Positions 806 to 50,202 of a stretch of DNA of 63,967 bases are shown in pieces. The notes below the pieces were generated by a model. That model was not told where the DNA came from. It did no database searches and saw only the letters and a program-made list of their open reading frames with translations. Source of the stretch: Patescibacteria group bacterium (GTDB lineage Bacteria > Patescibacteriota > Patescibacteriia > UBA9934); contig JBAZUI010000005.1 in the NCBI GenBank assembly GCA_041661425.1, forward strand, positions 1 to 63,967, written 5' to 3'. Position 1 is the first letter of the stretch, and the number at the start of each line of letters is the position of its first letter. The translations under genes and the position numbers were made by a program.

Positions 806-1855
806 ATGGGAAAAGTTGTTGGAGGGTTTGGAAAACATAATCCCGAAGGACAATCAGAGGAATCGTACGAGCGCGGAGTCGCACGAAAAAGCGTCATTCA
901 ATTTTTAGCGGAGAAACCCCCAGCAGTTTCGCATCGGCTATTTCAAATACTGATTGAAAGAGCCCAAGAGACGCCGGAAGAGGTTGAATTGACGGGATTT
1001 TACAATCGAGTCGTTGATTTTCAAAAATTGCTCGATGAAAAAACATTTGAAGGTTTCGTAAAAACAAAATCAAAGAAATTTAATGATAAAAAAGGAATTC
1101 TGGAAGAAATCGAGGGAGTAACGGATGTCACAAGACAAACCGCTGCAGAAAATTTGTTCCTGGCGTGGGAAAATCTCTATGATGCGCAAGTGCACATTCT
1201 CGATATGGAAGGCATTGATGAAAATCACCCAGAAAGGGAGAGAAAAATTCAAGAAGCAACAAAAAAATGGGATGATCGGACAAAAGTATTTCGAGAACAG
1301 ATCATGAATATCGAGCAAGAACTTCGTCCGGTTATTGCAGCGTATGATCGCTTGGATTGGCAGGTAAAAGATAAGGCGAAACAGTACGGTCTTGATGGTG
1401 CTTTCGAACGTCTAAAATCAAGAATCCCAAGTGCCAAACCAAATATGGAACGCTATGTTCGGGATGTCGAAAAGCTTTTTTCTGATATTGAGCGTCACGA
1501 AAATGAGGCTCGGGTCGCACTTCCTCAACCAACTGAACAGCCAGAAGAGGTTCCTCTCACGCCAGAACAAGAACAGAAGATCGTGGGAGAGGTTCGAAGA
1601 TTAATCACGCAGGGAAAAATTAAAACTCTGAATCGATATTGCGAAGTTAGCGAGGCGATTTTTTGGGAGAATGGGCAATCGATTACAACAGATAATTTTG
1701 AAGGAAATCCCGCAAAGCTCATGAAGGGAAAGACGCGACATGGGGATCATGTTCTTGAAGAGAAGAGTTTATCTCTTGGAAAACTTGTTGTTATCGGAAG
1801 GATTGAACATCCTCGCGATCCACCATTTTTTTATCTTGTTTGGAAGCGAGAGTAG
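806..1855 (+). CDS. Hypothetical E/K-rich protein; sole cargo of the insertion bracketed by 5S 3'-end repeats
   Basis: Long ORF. The first ATG is at 806 (the track ORF starts at TTG 779). The TAG stop (1853-1855) lies inside the second copy of the 5S-derived repeat. No recognisable catalytic motif. Confidence 0.7.
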   Translation: MGKVVGGFGKHNPEGQSEESYERGVARKSVIQFLAEKPPAVSHRLFQILIERAQETPEEVELTGFYNRVVDFQKLLDEKTFEGFVKTKSKKFNDKKGILEEIEGVTDVTRQTAAENLFLAWENLYDAQVHILDMEGIDENHPERERKIQEATKKWDDRTKVFREQIMNIEQELRPVIAAYDRLDWQVKDKAKQYGLDGAFERLKSRIPSAKPNMERYVRDVEKLFSDIERHENEARVALPQPTEQPEEVPLTPEQEQKIVGEVRRLITQGKIKTLNRYCEVSEAIFWENGQSITTDNFEGNPAKLMKGKTRHGDHVLEEKSLSLGKLVVIGRIEHPRDPPFFYLVWKRE

Positions 1856-1887
1856 GTAGTCGCCAGAACAATGCAACGATTTTTTGT
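1846..1887 (+). repeat. Orphan duplicate of the 5S rRNA 3' end plus trailer (identical to 696-737)
   Basis: 42/42 nt identity: GCGAGAGTAGGTAGTCGCCAGAACAATGCAACGATTTTTTGT. The offset between copies is 1150 bp. Confidence 0.95.
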
Positions 1888-1896
1888 TTGGATGAA

Positions 1897-1918
1897 CGTC
1901 AAATTTTGACGCTTTTTA
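1897..1918 (+). terminator. Hairpin plus T-run after the orphan 5S fragment
   Basis: CGTCAA-ATT-TTGACG stem-loop followed by CTTTTTAT. Confidence 0.5.
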
Positions 1919-1946
1919 TCGTCACGAGATGTGCTAAAATGCAAAC

Positions 1947-2381
1947 ATGAAACTCTATCATGGATCAAAAATTGATTTTTCTTCTATCCGGAAGAAGCAG
2001 GCGATGAAGGCCGACCACATTGTGGTTCCTGAGGGTGAATTATTGGATGCTATTTATCTAACGCCTGATTATGGCTTTGCTTTGGCGTGTGGCGCAAGAC
2101 CCGAAGGCGTTACGGACATAGACGACGACCACAAGGCGATAACATTTGAAAATCCCAAGCTTTTTGATCCAGAAGAAAGGGTCTACGTCTACGAAATTGA
2201 TACGGACAAAATTCCCGAGGGGCATATTAGAAAAATCGACGATCGGCAATATGCGATTGTTGATTTTGGAGAAATAGATATAGAGGAAAAACATGTGCAC
2301 AAAGCTGGAGATATTCAAGGATTTTACGAGTTGAAAAATTGGAAGGAAAAGCCGACAGAGATGAATGCTGAGTTAAAATGA
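1947..2381 (+). CDS. Hypothetical protein (N-terminal MKLYHGS motif)
   Basis: 144-aa ORF with ATG start. No confident family assignment. Confidence 0.6.
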   Translation: MKLYHGSKIDFSSIRKKQAMKADHIVVPEGELLDAIYLTPDYGFALACGARPEGVTDIDDDHKAITFENPKLFDPEERVYVYEIDTDKIPEGHIRKIDDRQYAIVDFGEIDIEEKHVHKAGDIQGFYELKNWKEKPTEMNAELK

Positions 2382-2455: not shown

Positions 2456-3205
2456 ATGAATACACGCGTTGTGGTACTCGCCGCTGGGAAGGGAAAACGC
2501 ATGGGAGCAGATTTGCCGAAACCCCTTGTTGAAATCGCAGGAAAACCAATCGTTGAGCACCTTTTGTCGAATATTATTGAAAGCGGTGTTGATCCATTGC
2601 CGATTCTTGTCATTTCTCCGGATGCGACTGAGTTATTCCGTCCAATTTGCGAGAATCATCGGTGTGAATTCGCTTTTCAAGAGGAACAGTTGGGAACCGG
2701 TCATGCCACACGAATGGCAAAAGAATTGTCAGGCGATGCGGATACGATTGTTGTTCTCAATGGTGACCATCCTTTTACTTCACCGGAGGTTATTCAAGAA
2801 TTGGTTGCAATGCGCACAGAACATCATGCGGCCGTTTCCATGATTACGGCGAAAGTCCCAAATTATCAAGGAGATTTTGCGGCATTTCAATCCTGGGGTC
2901 GAATTAAACGCGATACTTCTGGGAACGTTGAAAAGATTGTTGAAGTCAAAGACGCCGGAGAAGAAGAACTCGCGATCAAAGAGGTTAATCCTGCTCTGTA
3001 CGCATTTGACGCTCATTGGCTTTGGGAGCATTTACCTGAATTGCAAAATAAAAACGTGAGTAAGGAATATCATCTAACCGATTTGATTGAGATTGCGATT
3101 GGAGAAGGTGAAGATGTTGTGACAGCTCATGCAGATCCATTTGAAGTGATTGGCATTAACACGCCGGAAGAACTTGAACGCGCAGAACGATTACTTGGAA
3201 AATAA
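2456..3205 (+). CDS. Sugar-1-phosphate nucleotidyltransferase, GlmU N-terminal-domain-like (no acetyltransferase domain)
   Basis: VVLAAGKGKRMG nucleotide-binding motif, and LNGDHPF. ATG at 2456 lies inside track ORF 2417-3205. Confidence 0.8.
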   Translation: MNTRVVVLAAGKGKRMGADLPKPLVEIAGKPIVEHLLSNIIESGVDPLPILVISPDATELFRPICENHRCEFAFQEEQLGTGHATRMAKELSGDADTIVVLNGDHPFTSPEVIQELVAMRTEHHAAVSMITAKVPNYQGDFAAFQSWGRIKRDTSGNVEKIVEVKDAGEEELAIKEVNPALYAFDAHWLWEHLPELQNKNVSKEYHLTDLIEIAIGEGEDVVTAHADPFEVIGINTPEELERAERLLGK

Positions 3206-3207
3206 AG

Positions 3208-3237
3208 AACAGGGCGTGATTGCCCTGTTTTTCTTTT
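3208..3237 (+). terminator. Rho-independent terminator
   Basis: AACAGGGC-GTGATT-GCCCTGTT stem-loop followed by TTTCTTTT. Confidence 0.7.
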
Positions 3238-3256
3238 CTGTTAAAATGAGGTGATT

Positions 3257-4516
3257 ATGCAAGTCATTGCCGATCTTCATGTCCATTCTCGATTTTCTCG
3301 TGCTTGTTCCAAGGAATTGACGCTCGAGAATAATGCTTTGTGGTGCTCAAAAAAAGGCGTTGGGATTTTAGGGACCGGTGACTTTACGCATCCGGCGTGG
3401 TTTAAGGAAATAAAAGAAGAGCTCATCGAGGACGAACCGGGATTATTCCGGCTCAAATCTGGCCATTATCCTGATATTCGTTTTATCCTTTCGACCGAGG
3501 TCTCGCAGATTTATAAGAAGAATGGAAAGACGCGTCGCATCCACAATATTGTTTTTGCGCCTTCGCTCGACGTGGTTGAGAAGATTCACGCCTGGCTCGA
3601 TGATCATCACTTCAATCGTAAAGCAGATGGTCGACCGATTCTTGGCATCGATTCAGAAGTGTTGTTAAAAGCACTCAAAGAAATCGACAAACGTATTTAT
3701 CTCATCCCTGCGCACGCATGGACGCCGTGGTTTTCGGTATTTGGATCATATTCTGGATTTGATTCACTCGAGGAATGCTTTGGTGACATGACAAAAGAAA
3801 TATTTGCGATTGAAACCGGGCTCTCAAGCGATCCGCTCATGAATCGTTCACTTTCGCGTCTCGATCACATCGCACTCATTTCAAATTCCGACGCGCATAG
3901 TCCGCGTAACTTTGGACGTGAAGCAAATGTGTTTGAGATGAAAAAGAAATCATATGATGAATTATTTTCGATTTTAAAATCACGCGATCCGAAAAAGTTT
4001 TTGTCTACGATTGAGTTTTATCCAGAGGAAGGGAAGTATCATGCGGATGGTCATGCGGACTGTGAATTTTGGTGTGAGCCGGAAGAAACGATTCGTCTGG
4101 GCGGTATTTGTCCGAAGTGCAAAAAGCAATTGACCGTTGGCGTGCTCGCACGAGTGAAAAAACTAGCGGATCGTGAACGTCTAAAAATCATGCCGAAGAA
4201 TCAGATCCCGTTCAAATCCATTGTTCCTCTTCAAGAGGTCATTGCCAAGTCTCTTGGGGTTGTGGGGACCGGATCAAAAAAAGTTCAGGCGCAATATGAA
4301 AAGCTGCTTGAACTTGGAAATGAATTTTTTATTCTTCTGGACGCGGATTTGAAGATGATTGGAGAATTTTCTCCCCCAGCTGTTGTTGAATCTATCCGAC
4401 GTATGCGAGCAGGAAAGATGCATATTCGTCCCGGATATGATGGCGTGTATGGGCAGGTAGAATTTTATTTCGAAAACGACCCGCTACCAATTGCGAAACA
4501 AACCTCACTTCTCTAA
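3257..4516 (+). CDS. PHP-family phosphoesterase with Zn-ribbon (COG1379 / EndoQ-like)
   Basis: N-terminal ADLHVHSRFSRA PHP motif, GTGDFTHP, and a CPKC..Zn-ribbon-like CxxC. GAGGTG Shine-Dalgarno 5 nt before ATG 3257. Confidence 0.7.
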   Translation: MQVIADLHVHSRFSRACSKELTLENNALWCSKKGVGILGTGDFTHPAWFKEIKEELIEDEPGLFRLKSGHYPDIRFILSTEVSQIYKKNGKTRRIHNIVFAPSLDVVEKIHAWLDDHHFNRKADGRPILGIDSEVLLKALKEIDKRIYLIPAHAWTPWFSVFGSYSGFDSLEECFGDMTKEIFAIETGLSSDPLMNRSLSRLDHIALISNSDAHSPRNFGREANVFEMKKKSYDELFSILKSRDPKKFLSTIEFYPEEGKYHADGHADCEFWCEPEETIRLGGICPKCKKQLTVGVLARVKKLADRERLKIMPKNQIPFKSIVPLQEVIAKSLGVVGTGSKKVQAQYEKLLELGNEFFILLDADLKMIGEFSPPAVVESIRRMRAGKMHIRPGYDGVYGQVEFYFENDPLPIAKQTSLL

Positions 4517-7120: not shown

Positions 7121-7960
7121 TTATTTTGATGCTTTTTTTTGGGTTTTTTTCCACATCTCAATGCTTTCAGAAAATTCTTGAGCAATCTGTCGGATGGCTT
7201 CTTTTTTTGAAATGCGTTTCTTCTCGTAGAGCGTGAGCGTTGGCATAAAAATCGTTCGCCCGATTGCCATACCAGAGACCACGCCACTTTTTGCTGCGGT
7301 TTGGATCCAGGTGCGCACTTGTTTTTTTGATGCTCCACGACCAAGAACAATGAGTGGAATCTCGGTTGCTCGTGCGACTTGTTGCCATTCTTTTGTGGAA
7401 TTCAACCCTTCGACTTTCCAAAGATCAGGAAGAATTCCATCTTGTTGAAGATTCTTAATGGCGTCGATTAAGAGTTGATATTTCGGTTTCGATCCCTTTA
7501 CAAGAATTTCAATGAGAATTTTTATGTGCAAATCACGAGCGATCATTTGCAACTCTTTGAGGCGTTTATGGATGCGCGCGTGGGTTTCTTGCTTTTCCGG
7601 AGCGTAACGAATCAGGACCTTCGCATAGGTTGGCCGGAATCGTTTCAAATGGTCACTCAATGCATCAGAGTATTCAAACGCCAGCGACTCTCCACCGCTT
7701 TGTTCGGTTGTGAGCGCAAATGCTATTTTTTTTCTTCTGGCACTTTTTAGTATTTTTTTCCCAAATTCCTCATCGACAAGAATTGCGAATTCTTCTTTCT
7801 TTTTTGAGTTCCGATAGACTTCAATGAAGCCGGAAAAAATAATGCGCTTGAGGTGACGAATGCGTCGAGCCTCTCTGGATGCCACCGGGTAAGTTGTTCG
7901 CAATAGTTCTTCAGCGAATGAGGCTCGGTGATCAAAGGGGAGAAAAAAGAGATTTTTCAT
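7121..7960 (-). CDS. Aldolase-like protein (DUF2090 / IolC C-terminal-like, class I aldolase fold)
   Basis: Starts MKNLFFLPFDHRASF. ATG at 7960 overlaps the upstream stop (ATGA). The family call is from memory of the motif. Confidence 0.55.
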   Translation of the reverse strand: MKNLFFLPFDHRASFAEELLRTTYPVASREARRIRHLKRIIFSGFIEVYRNSKKKEEFAILVDEEFGKKILKSARRKKIAFALTTEQSGGESLAFEYSDALSDHLKRFRPTYAKVLIRYAPEKQETHARIHKRLKELQMIARDLHIKILIEILVKGSKPKYQLLIDAIKNLQQDGILPDLWKVEGLNSTKEWQQVARATEIPLIVLGRGASKKQVRTWIQTAAKSGVVSGMAIGRTIFMPTLTLYEKKRISKKEAIRQIAQEFSESIEMWKKTQKKASK

Positions 7961-8490
7961 AGAGATTTCAATTGCCGGCCATGATAAAGGAAAATGGGAA
8001 GAGCACCTTGTTCGGCAAAGGATGCTTCCGGTGTGATATTCGGGAGTGGCCAGGCTTCCACAAGTACCAGACAATCATCTTTGAGTCGCGGACCGATTTT
8101 TTTGATGATTTTTTTGTAGGAGTTTGGCATGAGAAAGAGCGTCACCACGTCGGCGCGGGAAGGATCAATGGAAAAAAGATTTCCAAAGCGAAGGGAGACT
8201 CCATGATATTTTTTTTGGTGCATGAGTATCCGAATCCAGCCGATGCAAAGAGGAATAAGAGAGATGTCGTACCCAATATATCTGAGTGTTGGCGCGGTTT
8301 CCTTGAGTCCGAATAAGAGCGAACCGTCCCCGCATCCCAAATCCATGACAATGCCTTGAGCAGGGAGGGGGATTTTTTTCAATTGGTTTCGTTCTCGTTT
8401 TCTTGTCGGGACCCATGGCGCGGCAGAGAGTCCGGCAATGGCCGCCGAAGCAATGAAACTCCAAACAAGAAGAAAAAGAATCCATTTCAT
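7957..8490 (-). CDS. Class I SAM-dependent methyltransferase with N-terminal membrane/signal segment
   Basis: VMDLGCGDGSLL motif I. Confidence 0.7.
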   Translation of the reverse strand: MKWILFLLVWSFIASAAIAGLSAAPWVPTRKRERNQLKKIPLPAQGIVMDLGCGDGSLLFGLKETAPTLRYIGYDISLIPLCIGWIRILMHQKKYHGVSLRFGNLFSIDPSRADVVTLFLMPNSYKKIIKKIGPRLKDDCLVLVEAWPLPNITPEASFAEQGALPIFLYHGRQLKSL

Positions 8491-10169: not shown

Positions 10170-11072
10170 CTATTTACGAACCTTGCGATAGATGGCGCGA
10201 CCAAGAATGAACAGAGCGGCAGCTGGAATTCCGATGGCGCCTCCAACAATGATCGTGTAGATGAGGGCCACGATGAAATCCTGGAAGAGCTGGACAACCG
10301 TTTGTACAGCTTCGATGATTGATTGCCAGGGGCGGAAGGTGTCAGTCTCGAATCCGATGGTCGTTTCTTCCGAGAGGTAGATGTTGATGGTTGAAAGTGA
10401 GACGGATTCTTCGTAATAATTCATTTCCGCTTCCATCATTTCGATCTCTGCACGTACATTTGAAAGCGCATTTTCGATCATGAGCATGTCCTCGACCTCC
10501 GTGGCTTGGTTCATGATGAGAAGATACTGCGCTTCTTCTGCCTGGGCATTTGAAAGCCGAGCTTGCAAATTAATAACTGATTCCGTGACATCACTCGCGT
10601 ACACATTTTCAGATTCGATAACACTCGCAAGATCTTTTATTGAACCCATGGCCGCATCGAATGCCGTTGCCTCAACCTGGATACTCATCCACCCGCTTTT
10701 TGGCATGTCCGGATAATTTGAAATGGATCGATTAGTGACAAGTCCACCGTGTTCTTTGGCAACACCCGCGATGGCATCGGCGGTTGTTTCCACATTGGAT
10801 GTGGTAATGGAAAGATCACCGGTTTTAATAATAAGTTGAGTTGCGCCGCTGGTATCAATTGAAGCGTCTGAAGAGAGATATGCAGCTTCGGGCGCCACCT
10901 CAGAATTCATGGTTTTGACCGCGAATTCATCGCTAAAATAGACGCCCCCCATTCCTCCACTTGAAGTGGTGTAGGGAACTGGGCGTCCCCAAAAGATGGT
11001 GAGACCAAGGGCGACAATGAGAACAGCGCCGAGGCCAAGGAGCCAGTAGAACGTTGGTTTGGATATTTTCAT
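10170..11072 (-). CDS. Membrane-anchored coiled-coil protein (DUF4349-like)
   Basis: N-terminal and C-terminal TM helices with a central Q/E/A-rich coiled coil. ATGA overlap with the upstream tkt subunit. Confidence 0.6.
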   Translation of the reverse strand: MKISKPTFYWLLGLGAVLIVALGLTIFWGRPVPYTTSSGGMGGVYFSDEFAVKTMNSEVAPEAAYLSSDASIDTSGATQLIIKTGDLSITTSNVETTADAIAGVAKEHGGLVTNRSISNYPDMPKSGWMSIQVEATAFDAAMGSIKDLASVIESENVYASDVTESVINLQARLSNAQAEEAQYLLIMNQATEVEDMLMIENALSNVRAEIEMMEAEMNYYEESVSLSTINIYLSEETTIGFETDTFRPWQSIIEAVQTVVQLFQDFIVALIYTIIVGGAIGIPAAALFILGRAIYRKVRK

Positions 11073-11947
11073 AGATGTTTTAAGTCACTTAAAGCTTGTT
11101 GTTTTTGCCGTGATCGCGGGACCTTATCCTCGGGACCGGTTCCCGGAACCGCGCCATGCCAACGATAATTATGCTCCATATAATGAACGCCTTTTCCCGG
11201 GATGGTGTGGAGAAGAAGAACAGTTGGAATCTGCGAAGTTGAACGTGCAAGTCCCAAGGTATCGATCATTTCCCGAATATTATGTCCGTCCACTTCGAGT
11301 ACTTGAAAACCGAATGCTTCGAATTTTTCACGTAAAGGTTCAAGAGGCATGATGTCCTCGGTTTTCCCATCGATTTGGATGCCATTTCGATCGACTATCC
11401 AGGTGAGCGTATCAAGATGATGCTTTGAAATAAAGAGTGCGGTTTCCCAGACGATCCCGGTTTGAAGCTCGCCGTCAGAAAGGAGGCAATAGGTGTGCCA
11501 GGGAAGACCGTGCTGTTTTGCGAAGTAGGCGAGCCCGGCCGATTGTGCGGCTCCGTCTCCCAAAGGGCCTGAGGTTGTCTCAACTCCAGCAAGAGAGGCG
11601 ATTTCCGGATGACCTTGAAGCGCTGATCCGAATTTTCGCAGGGTTTTCAGTTCTTCGCGTGGAAAATATCCGGCTCGGGCCATCGCGGCATAACGCGAAG
11701 GACACACATGACCATTGGAAAGAATAAAACGATCCCGATCCTTCCATCGAGGTTTTTTCGGGTCATGAACGAGAACATGAAAATAGAGCGCGGTCATAAG
11801 ATCAGCAATCCCCAAGGATCCGGCCGCATGTCCGCTTTGGGAAGTCGCAAGCATTTCAACAATATCCACACGAATCTCGCGTGCGATTTTTTCTAAACGT
11901 AAAAAATCCGAATCAGTGAGGACGCGAAGGGCAGAGGGTTTCTCCAT
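11069..11947 (-). CDS. tkt: Transketolase, N-terminal (TPP-binding) subunit
   Basis: SGHAAGSLG, ILSNGH and LSDGELQTG motifs. Confidence 0.9.
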   Translation of the reverse strand: MEKPSALRVLTDSDFLRLEKIAREIRVDIVEMLATSQSGHAAGSLGIADLMTALYFHVLVHDPKKPRWKDRDRFILSNGHVCPSRYAAMARAGYFPREELKTLRKFGSALQGHPEIASLAGVETTSGPLGDGAAQSAGLAYFAKQHGLPWHTYCLLSDGELQTGIVWETALFISKHHLDTLTWIVDRNGIQIDGKTEDIMPLEPLREKFEAFGFQVLEVDGHNIREMIDTLGLARSTSQIPTVLLLHTIPGKGVHYMEHNYRWHGAVPGTGPEDKVPRSRQKQQALSDLKHL

Positions 11948-33689: not shown

Positions 33690-35087
33690 TTAATACGCTC
33701 CAGTTCGGAAAAAGACGGCGAGTGGAGTTTTTACAAGAACAACCAAATCCATCCATGGGCTCCAATTTTCAATATAATACATATCAAGGCGCACCTCATC
33801 GTTGAAATCAAGATTTGCACGGCCACTGATTTGCGCGATGCCGGTGATGCCGGGTTTGATCGTGAGGACCCGGCGTTGGGCTGGTTTATAATTTGCGACC
33901 TCTTCGGGTAAATGTGGCCGAGGTCCAATAATACTCATGCGACCAAAGAAAACAAGATAGAATTCCGGGATCTCATCGAGACTCAATTTTCGGAGAATGC
34001 GTCCAACCGGAGTGACGCGCGGATCGTCCTTCAGTTTAAAAAGCGGACCCTTGCGTTCGTTTCCAAATTTTTTTATGAAGGCGGGATCGGACCGAAGGGC
34101 GACAGCATTCTTTACCATGGAGCGGAACTTGAAATATTGAAATGGTTTTTCATTTTGTCCCATGCGTTTTTGATGAAAGAGAATACCGCCTTGGCGTTCA
34201 ATAAGAAGGGCCGCGGCAACGATCACTTGGATGGGGAGAGAAAAAACAATCAAGAAAAAAGAAACAACAATGTCAAAAAGGCGTTTATAGATCGCGCCCC
34301 ACCCATCAAGGGGGGTTTTCGGGATCTCGATGACTGGAATACCAGCGAATGTATGGATGATTGGTTGCACGGCGCTTCCGGGGAAAAGCTCAGCGGAATA
34401 GAGAAAGGTCAGATGCTCAATGTCCGCGAATGATTTGATGTCTTCAAGCTGTTCGTGGTTGATGTGCGGATCAGCCAGGCAGAGAATGTCCGCCTTATTT
34501 TTTTTTCGAAGTTCAAGGATTCTTTGTTTTGTCTCCTCGGAAAAAGATCCGAATTGTTGAGAGACATGGAATCCAAGGCGGGGAAAACGCGTAAAGAATT
34601 CGCGGAGTTCGTGACCGGATTTTGTCTTGCCAAGAATCACGACATATTTTGCACCAATCCCTTTGCTGTAGAGCGTGCGCTGAATCATACGAATCGTGAG
34701 GCGCTCGATAATCAAAAAGAGTGAAGCGACCGCCCAGATTGCCAAGAGAATAAAACGCGATTCAAAGAGCTCGCGCGAAAAGAAAGCAATGCCAAGCACC
34801 ACGGCAATACCGGCGGAAACAGCAACAATAATTCGAGTCGCCTCAGTTGCGAGTCGACGCGTTTTAATGGCGTAAAGACCGGAAAGAGCAAAAATGACAA
34901 TCCAGACAATGGCGAGCGGTACAATGGTTTGAAGATATCCGGCAAGCGTGAGATCGAATGTTACGGGGCGAATATTTGTAAACATCGGGATAAAACGGAG
35001 ACTAAACGCCGCAATTGCCGCGAGGATGAGAGTCAGATAATCCAATGGAACAAGCGCGGCCGTAAAAAATAAATCAATGCGTTTCAT
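33690..35087 (-). CDS. Polyprenyl-phosphate glycosyl-1-phosphate transferase (bacterial sugar transferase, WbaP/WcaJ-like)
   Basis: Multi-TM N-terminus, with C-terminal KFRSM...GPRP and PGITGxAQ motifs. Confidence 0.85.
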   Translation of the reverse strand: MKRIDLFFTAALVPLDYLTLILAAIAAFSLRFIPMFTNIRPVTFDLTLAGYLQTIVPLAIVWIVIFALSGLYAIKTRRLATEATRIIVAVSAGIAVVLGIAFFSRELFESRFILLAIWAVASLFLIIERLTIRMIQRTLYSKGIGAKYVVILGKTKSGHELREFFTRFPRLGFHVSQQFGSFSEETKQRILELRKKNKADILCLADPHINHEQLEDIKSFADIEHLTFLYSAELFPGSAVQPIIHTFAGIPVIEIPKTPLDGWGAIYKRLFDIVVSFFLIVFSLPIQVIVAAALLIERQGGILFHQKRMGQNEKPFQYFKFRSMVKNAVALRSDPAFIKKFGNERKGPLFKLKDDPRVTPVGRILRKLSLDEIPEFYLVFFGRMSIIGPRPHLPEEVANYKPAQRRVLTIKPGITGIAQISGRANLDFNDEVRLDMYYIENWSPWMDLVVLVKTPLAVFFRTGAY

Positions 35088-35104
35088 ACAAAATCTATTA
35101 TAAC

Positions 35105-35128
35105 AAAAAATCCCGCTTTTCAGCGAGG
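35105..35128 (-). terminator. Terminator after rnpB
   Basis: Minus strand reads CTCGC-TGAAAA-GCGGG followed by ATTTTTT. Confidence 0.6.
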
Positions 35129-35134
35129 TTTTTT

Positions 35135-35645
35135 GTATTCAGGAAATGCGTAAGCCGAATTCTGTTCCAAATGCCGAAGCATTGGGGCGGTCATCTCTCT
35201 AGGGCGTCTCTTGCGAGACGTCTCATGCGAGCTACCTAATTTGCTCTTGCACCAAGGCAGGTTTGCCACCGCTCCATGTCGCCATGGAGGGAGACTGGTG
35301 GCTCCCGTCAGGGAACCTCCAATCACTTTTCACCTTTTGTTCTACGCAGTGGAACAATCCTGAGTACCGAGCTTGTCGAGGTATCGAAGGGTCACGTTGC
35401 ACCTCTCGACTCGCTTTGCTCGCTCGGGATCGTTTTACTGCGTAAAACTAGTATTGTCTCTGTGGCGCTATCTCTGGGTTTCGGGAAGGGACCGAGGAAC
35501 GGATAAATCCAGTTCCTTGAACTCTTCCTATGTCCCGGTTGCCGTTAGCAACGCCTTTTGATTTTCGATCTTGCGATCGAAAAGGTGTTCGGACTTTCCT
35601 CTTGGGATCCGAAGATTCCAAGTAACCACCACCATTTCCTGAATG
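35135..35645 (-). ncRNA. rnpB: RNase P RNA, bacterial type A, unusually long (~510 nt)
   Basis: On the minus strand: GAGGAAAGTCCGAACAC (P4 5'), GGTGCAAGAGCAAATTAGG, CTAGAGAGATGACCGCCC, and ACAGAATTCGGCTTAC (P4 3'). P1 pairs ATTCAGGAAATG with CATTTCCTGAAT. Confidence 0.9.
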
Positions 35646-35650
35646 CCGAA

Positions 35651-35679
35651 ATAATAGCAGAAAACAGCTGAATTGTCAA
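35651..35679 (-). promoter_or_regulatory. Sigma70-type promoter for rnpB
   Basis: Minus strand reads TTGACA-17 nt-TATTAT. The predicted start falls ~7 nt downstream, at the P1 5' end. Confidence 0.65.
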
Positions 35680-35680
35680 T

Positions 35681-36083
35681 AAAAAAATGCTCCAGGGCAA
35701 GGGGCCTTGGAGCAGACGAAAAGAGAAGAATGCGGTGCGTAGAACAAGAAAAAGATAGTGTAGAGGGTTTCGTGGTTTGGCATCCGCCACATGTCCGATA
35801 AGCCGGAGTGACTTCTCAACAGCTTATCCCAAAGCGGATTGGCCTCGGTGGTGGGTTCTCACGCTCTTCGCTATTGGACCTCTAACGAAGCATCCCACTT
35901 CTCACATCCCCCTCACCCTGAATGTGAGCTTGGTGCGTGAGTTTACCCCATGATCAAGAGGCTACCTGCAAAAGTAACACGTTCTTGATCACACAAGACA
36001 GGCGTAGAACTCGCCCCTGACATATTCGACCTCGCCACGACCACAGCTACGTCTTTTGTTCCTCTTCTCCTACGCACCGCAGT
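35681..36083 (-). ncRNA. Unassigned structured RNA candidate Y (~400 nt) with its own promoter and terminator
   Basis: A 12-bp closing helix TGCGGTGCGTAG / CTACGCACCGCA encloses ~330 nt of hairpin-rich, ORF-poor sequence. Terminator hairpin GCTCCAAGGCC..GGCCCTGGAGC plus T7 at 35681-35713. Confidence 0.5.
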
Positions 36084-36089
36084 GTGGTG

Positions 36090-36118
36090 AAAGTACAGGA
36101 AAATCCAACAAAAGTCAA
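36090..36118 (-). promoter_or_regulatory. Sigma70-type promoter for RNA candidate Y
   Basis: Minus strand reads TTGACT-17 nt-TACTTT, immediately after the preceding terminator. Confidence 0.55.
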
Positions 36119-36411
36119 TAAAAATAGAACCCCACTGGAGGAGGTTCCGGTGGGGAGAATAAAATTGTGCGGTGTCGTTTTTTGCCGGGTGAGTTTGGGG
36201 GGCGTTCCCGAGAGAGGGCGGATTGAAAGGCTAGATTCACTCATGAATCAGCCGATGCCTCAAGCTTTTTTCTGTGCTCAAACCCGTGAGGGGAGCAACA
36301 GATATTGTGCTTGAACTTCGTCTTTTAGACGAAGGCCTGTCGGCATTTATTTTTCAACTTCTCAATCCCGGGTGACGGGGAAGGGCCCAGTGCGAAAAGA
36401 CGTCACCGCGC
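36119..36411 (-). ncRNA. Unassigned structured RNA candidate X (~290 nt) with its own promoter and terminator
   Basis: ORF-poor. Nested helices include GGTGACG..CGTCACC, GCCGACAGG..GCATCGGC and CTTCGTCT-AAA-AGACGAAG. Terminator CCCCACCGG..CCAGTGGGG plus T-rich run at 36119-36155. Confidence 0.45.
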
Positions 36412-36417
36412 GAAAAA

Positions 36418-36446
36418 AGAGTATCCCTTTTTTATAAATTTGTCAA
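36418..36446 (-). promoter_or_regulatory. Sigma70-type promoter for RNA candidate X
   Basis: Minus strand reads TTGACA-17 nt-TACTCT. Confidence 0.5.
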
Positions 36447-36456
36447 GAGTTAGCCT

Positions 36457-36488
36457 AAAAAACGAAAAGCCACGGGTTTAGCCGTGGG
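36457..36488 (-). terminator. Terminator after the GC-rich small gene
   Basis: Minus strand reads CCACGG-CTAAAC-CCGTGG followed by CTTTTCGTTTTTT. Confidence 0.65.
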
Positions 36489-36523
36489 AGGAGGCGGTTA
36501 GGCTCGAGCGGAGGATTGTCCGT

Positions 36524-36913
36524 CTACGAAACGGAGATGTCCGCGGGCCAGAGTTGGGGGCGCCTCGCCTGAATGGGCGGGCGGGCCGTGGGGATGGGGG
36601 CGCGGTCGAGGCCGAGGCTCAACACCTCGGGCGGCAAGAACGCGTGGAGGTAGAAGGGGATTTTCCGGACAAAAGTCCGGTAGTGGTACTGCCACTCAGT
36701 CTCGTTGGTAGCAGTGAGATCGACGATCCACTGCGCGAGAGTGTGGAGCCAAATCACGTTTTCCGGGCTCCTCTCGACCATGGGCATGATCGAGGTGATC
36801 GCGCTCATGAGTGCCCTCTGGTGCTCATTCATGCAGGCCCGCACGATCTTGAGCCTCCGAGAAGAACGGTGATGCTGTCGACGACCCTTGATTTCGGACT
36901 GGTGAAGACTCAT
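36524..36913 (-). CDS. Hypothetical 129-aa protein in a visibly GC-richer islet
   Basis: ATG at 36913 is preceded by GGAGG ~8 nt upstream. Third codon positions are mostly G/C. Own terminator. No family recognised. Confidence 0.6.
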   Translation of the reverse strand: MSLHQSEIKGRRQHHRSSRRLKIVRACMNEHQRALMSAITSIMPMVERSPENVIWLHTLAQWIVDLTATNETEWQYHYRTFVRKIPFYLHAFLPPEVLSLGLDRAPIPTARPPIQARRPQLWPADISVS

Positions 36914-37038
36914 GGTGAGTCCTCCGTGCTGGGGTGGGAATATCCTGTTGATCCAAGCCGGGCGGCTAGGACCAGGAAAGAATACCAAAAAAACCGCTTT
37001 TGTCAAGGGAAGCGGTTCTTTTTTTGTTTTGTTTTTTG

Positions 37039-37536
37039 TTACTTGGCTGCGATTTGAATATCAGTATTGCGCCGGTAAGCCTGTTGAATAAGTTCTTCGA
37101 GGAATTGATTCTGGACATCTTCGTTGCTTGCGAAGAATTGATTAGAACGAAGAATCCGTGCTCGCAGATTATCTTTTTCGTTGTTGGTAAGATGCGCCCA
37201 TTCAAGATGGTCTTGGAGATTTGATATTGACTGTTTTATTCGTTCCTCAGCAAGCTCCTTTTGCACACCCTTTTCTAGATTGGGGATGCTCTTTTGATAG
37301 GCCTGAATGACCTCGGGACCATATTCCCAGGCGGTTTGCGCGATGTCGCGATGAAGGCGTTTTTTTATTGAATCGTGTCCCGTGGCATGTGTTTCCTCAA
37401 GGATGACATGTGAGACGAATCGGATAAGTTCGTTTTTTCGATCTTCGGAAAAGAAATTCTCAAGAGAGATTTGTTTTTGATTATTTTCCTGATTTGCCGG
37501 TTTTTCCGGTTGCGGGAATCGTTCGAAGACGTTCAT
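37039..37536 (-). CDS. Hypothetical protein
   Basis: 165-aa ORF starting 4 nt after the trpS stop. Confidence 0.6.
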   Translation of the reverse strand: MNVFERFPQPEKPANQENNQKQISLENFFSEDRKNELIRFVSHVILEETHATGHDSIKKRLHRDIAQTAWEYGPEVIQAYQKSIPNLEKGVQKELAEERIKQSISNLQDHLEWAHLTNNEKDNLRARILRSNQFFASNEDVQNQFLEELIQQAYRRNTDIQIAAK

Positions 37537-50125: not shown

Positions 50126-50202
50126 GGGTCTGTAGCTCAGTTGGTTAGAGCGCCGAGCTTATACCTCGGTGGTCGATGGTTCGAGTCCATCCAGACCCAC
50201 CA
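50126..50202 (+). tRNA. tRNA-Ile (anticodon TAT), CCA encoded
   Basis: Manual fold: acceptor GGGTCTG/CAGACCC, anticodon arm CCGAG-CTTATAC-CTCGG, T-arm GATGG-TTCGAGT-CCATC. The body resembles bacterial tRNA-Ile. Confidence 0.85.

Follow-up and report, generated by a model that had tools for sequence, protein, structure and literature searches.

In a 64-kb contig stretch from a member of the Patescibacteria (the window; coordinates without a locus name refer to it), the minus strand upstream of rnpB carries a ~290-nt segment, here called X, and the question raised by this locus is whether X is the gene of a structured RNA and, if so, of what kind. An earlier note made from the sequence had read X as a stable-RNA-like unit, perhaps a divergent signal recognition particle (SRP) RNA or 6S RNA of this lineage, or something new. 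We find that X carries the signals expected of a transcription unit of its own, is non-coding by the available tests and is far more foldable than background. It is quite likely to be a genuine, selected, structured non-coding RNA gene, and with slightly less confidence, at a probability of roughly 0.6, the best explanation overall is that X specifies an independently transcribed structured small RNA (sRNA), one of a family closed by a long-range helix (P1) in which a conserved handle is combined with a variable body. Bacteria of the candidate phyla radiation (CPR)/Patescibacteria have tiny genomes and depend on hosts. To our knowledge their regulatory and structural RNAs are almost uncharted, and a literature search returned no paper on 6S-type or novel structured RNAs of CPR/Patescibacteria.

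X is the second in a row of four transcription-unit-like modules that occupies the minus strand from 37006 to 35112, namely an orphan GC-rich open reading frame (ORF), X, a further module Y, and rnpB (Table 1). The terminators, promoter, helices, perfect hairpin and T-rich run that the earlier note had listed for X were all recovered in place on this strand. Its description of consecutive units with a common grammar, in which a terminator is followed by a −35 box, 17 nt and a −10 box, was likewise borne out, and the number of units rises from three to four because the GC-rich ORF also has a promoter of this kind, with a 16-nt spacer. The pattern TTGAC[AT]-N17-TANNNT occurs eight times on the two strands of the window, where shuffled sequence would give 1.4 occurrences. 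Of these eight, three are the promoters of X, Y and rnpB in succession, and a fourth lies just upstream of tRNA-Leu.

The location of X downstream of the GC-rich ORF on the same strand, together with the existence of minus-strand ORFs of 41 and 65 codons in the X region, would fit a mere 3′ untranslated region (UTR) or a gene for a small protein, but either is highly improbable. A terminator and a conserved promoter intervene between the GC-rich ORF and X, and the terminator (36487-36470) sets the mRNA of the ORF apart from X; the idea that X is transcribed only as the 3′ UTR of 36524-36913, which the earlier note had considered, finds no support. The 65-codon ORF has no well-spaced ribosome-binding site, continues past the X terminator as far as Y, and lacks a counterpart in L161m, the homologue of X described below. 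X and L161m contain no common ORF; tblastx of the pair picks out nothing besides the region where their nucleotides are identical anyway, and gene callers place no gene at the module in loci L161 and L162. X shows no periodicity of G+C at third codon positions (GC3) and no translated similarity to any orphan ORF.

The predicted primary transcript of ~290 nt consists of a 245-nt core closed by P1, an 11-nt linker and a terminator hairpin. The 5′ strand of P1 begins at the predicted transcription start at ~36411, 7 nt past the −10 box, and in the predicted fold residues G3-U12 of the transcript (36409-36400) are paired with 36178-36169. Minimum free energy (MFE) and centroid structures concur in placing imperfect helices behind P1, followed by a four-hairpin junction. 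A candidate second helix, P2, is not part of the MFE fold; the sequence flanking it, GUCA(C/A)CCGG(G/A)A, can be aligned by eye with L161m. The MFE of X is −103.4 kcal/mol, which corresponds to z = −5.3 relative to dinucleotide shuffles, and the earlier description of X as ORF-poor and helix-rich is borne out. For comparison, z was −8.8 for rnpB, −2.8 for the GC-rich mRNA and −0.06 for a coding segment of the tryptophanyl-tRNA synthetase gene (TrpRS), while 59 random 250-nt segments gave a mean of −0.22 with a standard deviation of 1.35, three of them falling below −3. In four of the five module interiors tested, X among them, the sense strand outfolds the antisense strand.

We then turn to relatives. 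Proteins encoded in the window are closest to those of Candidatus Uhrbacteria and other Patescibacteria metagenome-assembled genomes (MAGs), and judging from these similarities the window organism is an Uhrbacteria-like CPR bacterium; the window sequence is present in one groundwater metagenome run. The nearest sampled relative is MAG JBAYHI01, also represented by an ENA contig and by JGI Ga0172379 (loci L161, L162 and L166). Its sugar transferase and TrpRS are 77% and 78% identical to those of the window, and protein searches with these two sequences yielded no relative with an identity above 78% and below 100%. L161 has one ~370-nt non-coding module, L161m, between an orphan ORF and rnpB, and by blastn against the window and ~250 fetched loci this is the only recognisable homologue of X. 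The L161m promoter, TTGACA-17-TACCGT, is preceded by the same GGCTAACT as in X. The first 13 nt of X, UUUUUGCGCGGUG, are conserved, the 3′-terminal 72 nt are 83% identical, and the terminator hairpin is identical at 26 of 26 positions, loop included. At positions 10-12 of P1, the pairs C-G/G-C/U-A of X are replaced by A-U/U-A/G-C in L161m, three double changes that keep the pairing, and an A.A mismatch in the P1 of X is a U-A pair in L161m. The fold z of L161m is −6.3. Within the interior, the 3′ half still aligns (z 4.3) and the 5′ half does not (z −0.3). An alignment of X with L161m by MAFFT and RNAalifold misaligned the 5′ ends and was not used. By this comparison the promoter, closing helix, 3′ junction and terminator of L161m are under constraint, and the body is unconstrained in sequence. 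As to conservation in relatives, to which the earlier note had attached weight, the ends, promoter and P1 are kept in L161m, whereas the interior has diverged and many relatives have no such module. The view of X as a stable-RNA-like unit, independent, structured and non-coding, whose promoter, ends and P1 the nearest relative retains, is upheld.

Modules of the same build are found elsewhere. Y shares the P1 base GCGGUG/CACCGC with X and is probably its tandem paralogue. Loci L081, L163 and L250, from the same sub-clade, have one module each at the position of X and Y, so that the family as defined here comprises six modules in five MAGs (X, Y, L161m, the L081 module, L163m and L250m), and its definition is drawn from these six. 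All six have their own promoter, a P1 that starts 6-10 nt past the −10 box and a strong terminator. In all six, the P1 base pairs 5′ G-Y-G-R-U with A-Y-C-R-C, followed by A(A)C and by a single-stranded linker of 8-25 nt that is C/U-rich in most and U-rich in X. X itself shows the full set of family features: a TTGAC(A/T)-17-TAnnnT promoter, the register and base of P1, the linker, the terminator and a site between the orphan ORF cassette and rnpB. When the six P1 stems are aligned over ten positions, pairing holds in 59 of 60 cells, and double changes occur at eight of the positions. The second pair of related modules repeats what is seen with X and L161m: L163m and L250m, from genomes whose sugar transferases are 76% identical, have homologous terminators with compensatory changes and partial 3′ similarity, and differ in their 5′ part and in size. 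For the closing-stem search, a duplex-energy screen proved too permissive and was replaced by an ungapped stem search. A metagenome scan with TrpRS gave mostly distant matches, with L081 as its only gain, and the further contigs L251-L256 contained no new module. It is plausible that X belongs to a small, lineage-restricted and fast-evolving family of one Uhrbacteria-like CPR sub-clade.

Two side observations concern short sequences in the modules. The octamer AAACUCAC is present in X (36189-36196), Y (35937-35944) and the L081 module (~1891-1898), that is in three of five modules versus 0.1 expected; it is the only k-mer shared among modules and was judged not significant. A related sequence, AACUCAC, is part of the 3′ strand of P1 in L250m. 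Separately, the 5′ end of X (CGCGGUGACGUCUUUU, 36409-36394) is complementary to nt ~30-45 of Y (AAAAGACGUAGCUGUG, 36055-36040) at 15 of 16 positions including G.U, which by a rough estimate is near chance (p ~0.08).

Inverted ends around a changing interior are also what a non-autonomous mobile element resembling a miniature inverted-repeat transposable element (MITE) would present, with the P1 stem as its terminal inverted repeats. Modules with different interiors do agree in the outermost 5-8 bp of their inverted ends, and Y is present in the window and missing from L161. We nevertheless consider a mobile element very unlikely. X is single-copy in the window and the ~250 fetched loci, where blastn of the modules detected no paralogue and no match beyond L161. 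Of 185,579 species genomes, only that of L161 contains a 20-mer taken from the terminator, chance hits aside, and viral contigs do not contain it. Reading the flanks of the window and L161 modules revealed no target-site duplication, every unit keeps an exact register with its promoter and terminator, and where the stems mismatch they mostly have G.U on the transcribed strand (four of five single mismatches counted). The presence or absence of Y can be accounted for by recombination between duplicated promoters, because the rnpB promoter of L161 resembles the 5′ half of the Y promoter fused to the 3′ half of the window rnpB promoter.

The surroundings of X bring up the main alternative to a selected RNA gene. 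The gene order SBP-RNase J-TrpRS-[variable interval]-rnpB-sugar transferase-glycosyltransferases is kept in dozens of these genomes, and the interval between TrpRS and rnpB ranges from ~75 nt in distant members to ~2.8 kb. Intervals longer than ~550 nt mostly hold one to three tandem cassettes, in each of which an orphan ORF is set between a TTGACA-17-TAnnnT promoter and a terminator. The orphan ORFs have a third-position G+C of 0.65-0.94, mostly above 0.7, in genomes of ~45-50% GC, and searches of them against Pfam and PHROGs gave nothing below E 0.01. The window orphan ORF has no detectable homologue but itself among 5.8 billion proteins, and AlphaFold2 run on the single sequence predicts a helical structure at low confidence (predicted local distance difference test score, pLDDT, 61). 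X, and Y with it, might therefore be a transcribed relic of such a cassette, decayed in the middle, with its ends kept as insulation for the neighbours and its fold as a by-product. Related genomes do carry one to three promoter/GC-rich-ORF/terminator cassettes at the same place, flanked by duplicated promoters. The modules are dispensable in many relatives, and between window and L161 the X interior diverges about as fast as orphan ORF DNA (alignment z 3.7 versus 3.0, as against 43 for rnpB). On the other hand, a relic would not preserve, by way of double substitutions, a helix of 10-20 bp that pairs the transcription start with the 3′ end, nor would it keep z at −5 to −7 in the modules, when a real orphan mRNA reaches only −2.8. 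Insulation by a terminator needs neither an invariant loop nor a conserved promoter of its own, and the absence from X of translated similarity to orphan ORFs and of GC3 periodicity points the same way. Decay of a cassette is thus an unlikely origin of X.

If X is an RNA gene, it matches none of the known families. On both strands of 35000-37300 at E ≤ 10, Rfam returned rnpB only, with no match in X; this was the known-family search that the earlier note had envisaged. At gathering score rnpB and tRNAs were the only matches in the whole window, and at E ≤ 5 no module in the related loci was matched, again leaving rnpB and tRNAs only. The covariance models of SRP RNA (RF00169 / RF01854) had no match at E ≤ 10 in 35000-37300, nor, on either strand, had those of 6S RNA (RF00013 and related), Ms1-type RNA and transfer-messenger RNA (tmRNA). 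In the window ARAGORN found six tRNAs and no tmRNA. Because Rfam and ARAGORN were negative, SRP RNA, tmRNA and any model-recognisable 6S RNA are excluded for X, and the likeness of a plus-strand segment to a tmRNA 5′ end, noted earlier, falls with them. For tmRNA in particular, ARAGORN found no tRNA-like domain. A 6S rod, with closing stem, central bubble and terminal stem in ~150-210 nt, does not agree with the predicted four-hairpin junction and 245-nt core of X, and sister modules, with two to seven hairpins (branch tips) and cores of 174-359 nt in their predicted folds, are unlike such a rod as well. We also considered a retron msr-msd. P1 provides terminal inverted repeats of the a1/a2 type, a feature that is generic and not retron-specific, but no reverse transcriptase is among the neighbours, which are RNase J, TrpRS, orphan ORFs, rnpB, the sugar transferase and glycosyltransferases.

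6S RNAs are poorly conserved in sequence, and model searches can miss them. A highly divergent 6S-type (RNA-polymerase-binding) RNA, SRP RNA or tmRNA would suit the stable-RNA-type promoter, the position next to rnpB and the pairing of the ends of X, as in 6S and Ms1. Even so, such an identity has been largely refuted and is now very improbable: in addition to the missing matches, the cores are predicted to be multibranched, with four to seven hairpins, and unlike a centrally bubbled rod, their sizes (174-359 nt) are too variable, and two copies are present in one genome while many sister genomes have none. An essential housekeeping RNA is disfavoured because X is missing in many close relatives with the same synteny. 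More broadly, a housekeeping role is unlikely because sister genomes can dispense with X, because it is duplicated in the window and because its surroundings are fast-evolving orphan genes. Of the proposals made earlier, SRP and 6S RNA did not stand, and the evidence favours something new, an RNA that fits no known family. The earlier observation is thus confirmed and its interpretation partly supported.

Several results weigh against the reading of X as a member of an sRNA family with a conserved handle. The −10 box TACTCT agrees with the consensus at only three of six positions, which is why a generic promoter scan did not list the X promoter. Much of the z-score of X is due to the closing helix P1 and the terminator, and the interior stripped of both has z = −3.6 in sense and −2.3 in antisense orientation. 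There is just one alignable homologue, so the covariation of X comes from one helix, and those of its interior are predicted. Because the stems themselves served to build the P1 alignment of the six sequences, that alignment is partly circular, and only the conserved P1 base counts as independent evidence. The cores, at 174-359 nt, have no common motif or common predicted topology, and no such module is present in many close relatives with the same synteny, including L001, L002, L168, L175, L185, L251, L254 and L255. The window sequence was in no RNA run searched. Runs with L161-type words cover rnpB only, those with L081 are DNA only and contain no variants, and metatranscriptome contigs with L161-type rnpB do not reach the module, although contigs cannot show absence. 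Finally, an anti-Shine-Dalgarno-like 3′ segment is nominally significant in two modules only (p 0.3 for X), and no specific pairing target of X was found within the window; RNAduplex comparisons of the modules with neighbouring mRNAs returned full-length duplexes only, which are meaningless.

Taking X as a structured sRNA, we propose the following scheme. Its near-consensus sigma-70-type promoter would drive a ~290-nt transcript. Selection would act on the promoter, on the P1 base that buries the 5′ end, on the A-rich junction, on the pyrimidine-rich 3′ linker and on the terminator hairpin, and the multibranched body would turn over in sequence, size and topology yet stay strongly folded. With its 5′ end buried in P1 and its 3′ end shielded by the terminator, the RNA could be long-lived. 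The handle, made up of the P1 base with the 3′ tail and hairpin, may be a protein-binding platform or may expose a C/U-rich pairing site, and the variable body may serve as a stabilising or effector scaffold. A role in masking GGAGG sites is conceivable because the invariant CCUCCUCC loop could pair with them. An architecture of this kind is typical of RNAs that bind or sequester proteins, such as 6S/Ms1 and Y RNAs, and by analogy X might act by sequestration or as a ribonucleoprotein and not as an enzyme or housekeeping RNA, but this mode of action is doubtful as a specific proposal. An accessory role, possibly in conflict or host interaction, is conceivable.

A broader and distinctly more speculative proposal, which we hold to be quite improbable, is that the TrpRS-rnpB interval is a hypervariable cassette array. 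Its units, bracketed by near-identical strong promoters and terminators, would be gained, duplicated and lost as these brackets recombine and would be of two kinds, GC3-rich orphan proteins and P1-closed RNAs, the RNAs being fast-diversifying effectors, or decoys, that take part in conflict or in interaction with a host. They could be, for example, protein- or nuclease-sequestering RNAs with the P1 base and 3′ tail as handle, and a system based on RNA in this way would be new for episymbiotic CPR bacteria.

Table 1. Features of the four-unit row in the window, related modules and orphan GC-rich ORFs.
Feature	Location	Strand	Basis	Details
GC-rich ORF promoter	37006-36979	minus	sequence	TTGACA-16-TATTCT
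Orphan GC-rich ORF	36913-36524	minus	sequence	129 codons; GGAGG upstream; GC up to 66%
GC-rich ORF intrinsic terminator	36487-36470	minus	terminator scan and sequence	
X promoter	−35 36446-36441; −10 36423-36418	minus	sequence and motif scan	TTGACA, 17-nt spacer, TACTCT
X, P1 5′ strand	36411-36400	minus	folds; compensatory changes vs L161m	GCGCGGUGACGU
X, variable multibranched core	36399-36179	minus	MFE and centroid	
X, candidate P2	36371-36367 with 36189-36185	minus	read by eye; inferred	CCGGG with CCCGG
X, perfect hairpin	36334-36316	minus	sequence	CTTCGTCT-AAA-AGACGAAG
X, further core hairpins	~36344-36335; ~36315-36259; ~36253-36229	minus	predicted fold	
X, P1 3′ strand	36178-36167	minus	fold and alignment	ACGACACCGCAC; conserved A-rich CCCGGCAAAAAAC just before
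X, linker	36166-36156	minus	sequence and predicted fold	AAUUUUAUUCU; single-stranded, U-rich
X intrinsic terminator	36155-36119 (hairpin 36155-36130, T-rich tail to 36119)	minus	terminator scan	CCCCACCGGAACCUCCUCCAGUGGGG (arms CCCCACCGG..CCAGTGGGG), U-rich tail; loop carries CCUCCUCC
Y promoter	36118-36090 (−35 at 36118-36113)	minus	sequence and motif scan	TTGACT-17-TACTTT
Y module	36118-35681	minus		P1 19 bp (36081-36063 with 35749-35731); 354-nt core; z = −5.0
Y terminator hairpin	35713-35689	minus	sequence	
rnpB promoter	35679-35651	minus	promoter scan	TTGACA-17-TATTAT
rnpB	35642-35135	minus	Rfam RF00010, 156.9 bits	anchor of conserved locus
rnpB terminator	35127-35112	minus	terminator scan	
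L081 module (Z)	JGI Ga0180430, 1803-2090			closing helix 20 bp; z −3.6
L163m	GCA_054039235, 4115-4512			z −7.2
L250m	GCA_018813605, 297-510			closing helix ~20 bp
Other orphan GC-rich ORFs	L001 9988-10971; L002 11257-11760; L081 1031-1702; L161 3719-4048; many in L167-L241			

Further features of the locus and its relatives were noted in passing. In L002, direct repeats that consist of a long hairpin element and the promoter (10979-11170 and 11808-11934) lie on either side of the GC-rich cassette and match over 45 nt at 82% identity and over 36 nt at 75%, as though the origin of the cassette had involved a duplication of the terminator/promoter spacer. The window rnpB measures 508 nt, compared with 386-430 nt in relatives, and in the Rfam alignment it has large lineage-specific insertions (~55 nt and ~90 nt) in peripheral helices. 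In L180 (DAORIP010000106.1), a GIY-YIG-like ORF (MFYVYIIKS...GTLYIGYSTDLQRRLEQHN...) at ~290-600 appears to be embedded in the 5′ part of rnpB, where it occupies the loop of a helix, CCCCGCACCUUUU/AAAAGGUGCGGGG, immediately ahead of the GAGGAAAGUCC core, and L212 possibly has a GIY-YIG-like ORF inside rnpB likewise (3055-3418). Between TrpRS and the GC-rich cassette of the window lies a minus-strand ORF of 165 codons and ordinary GC (37039-37536), which is not at this position in L161, L001 or L002 and has weak matches only (E 0.03-0.13) to MUG113 and T5orf172 domains. L161 also contains, ~1.2 kb downstream of its sugar transferase gene, a gene for 191 aa (7590-8165, minus strand) that faintly matches Y1_Tnp (IS200/RAYT-type). 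On the plus strand of the window, ARAGORN reports at 50126-50202 a tRNA-Ile with anticodon UAU, an anticodon that is uncommon in bacteria.

A strongly folded family of 250-400-nt promoter-to-terminator RNAs next to rnpB, conserved in a terminal handle only, with a body in rapid turnover and orphan proteins that evolve just as fast for neighbours, would give a concrete entry point to the RNAs of CPR bacteria. Annotators should be aware that, in such MAGs, the ~1 kb before rnpB is "empty" in appearance only. Were X a mere transcribed relic, it would still document the turnover of promoter-bracketed cassettes at one locus.

Among known systems, 6S RNA and Ms1 resemble X in being stable and probably abundant, in having a strong promoter and paired 5′ and 3′ ends, and in changing fast in sequence while keeping the fold; Ms1, at ~300 nt, is in the size range of X. 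They differ in forming a rod with a central bubble, whereas X has no Rfam match, varies in copy number and is absent in sister genomes, and binding of RNA polymerase by X is only hypothetical. Bacterial Y RNAs (Rsr/Ro-associated, for example YrlA) have a conserved end stem and pyrimidine-rich single strand and a variable rest, and often occur as tandem paralogues. The X modules are similar in their conserved end stem and pyrimidine-rich strand, variable module and tandem copies, but have larger cores, no tRNA-like domain and no Rfam match, and no rsr/TROVE gene is among the listed neighbours in relatives. With the C-rich-loop sRNAs of Gram-positive bacteria such as RsaE/RoxS, which mask Shine-Dalgarno sequences, the X modules have in common a C/U-rich loop in the 3′ hairpin (CCUCCUCC in X and L161m, CCCC in Y) that could pair with GGAGG. 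RsaE/RoxS, however, are ~100 nt long with repeated C-rich motifs, while the motif of X is not in all modules, its statistics are weak and no target was found. The large "ornate" bacterial RNAs raiA, OLE, ROOL, GOLLD and HEARO have well-conserved cores, abundant covariation and many genomes to their name, unlike the X family with its variable core, five MAGs and no Rfam match. Like X, these RNAs are several hundred nt long, multibranched and P1-closed, and stand out as G+C- and structure-rich islands without ORFs, and when they were discovered their function was also obscure.

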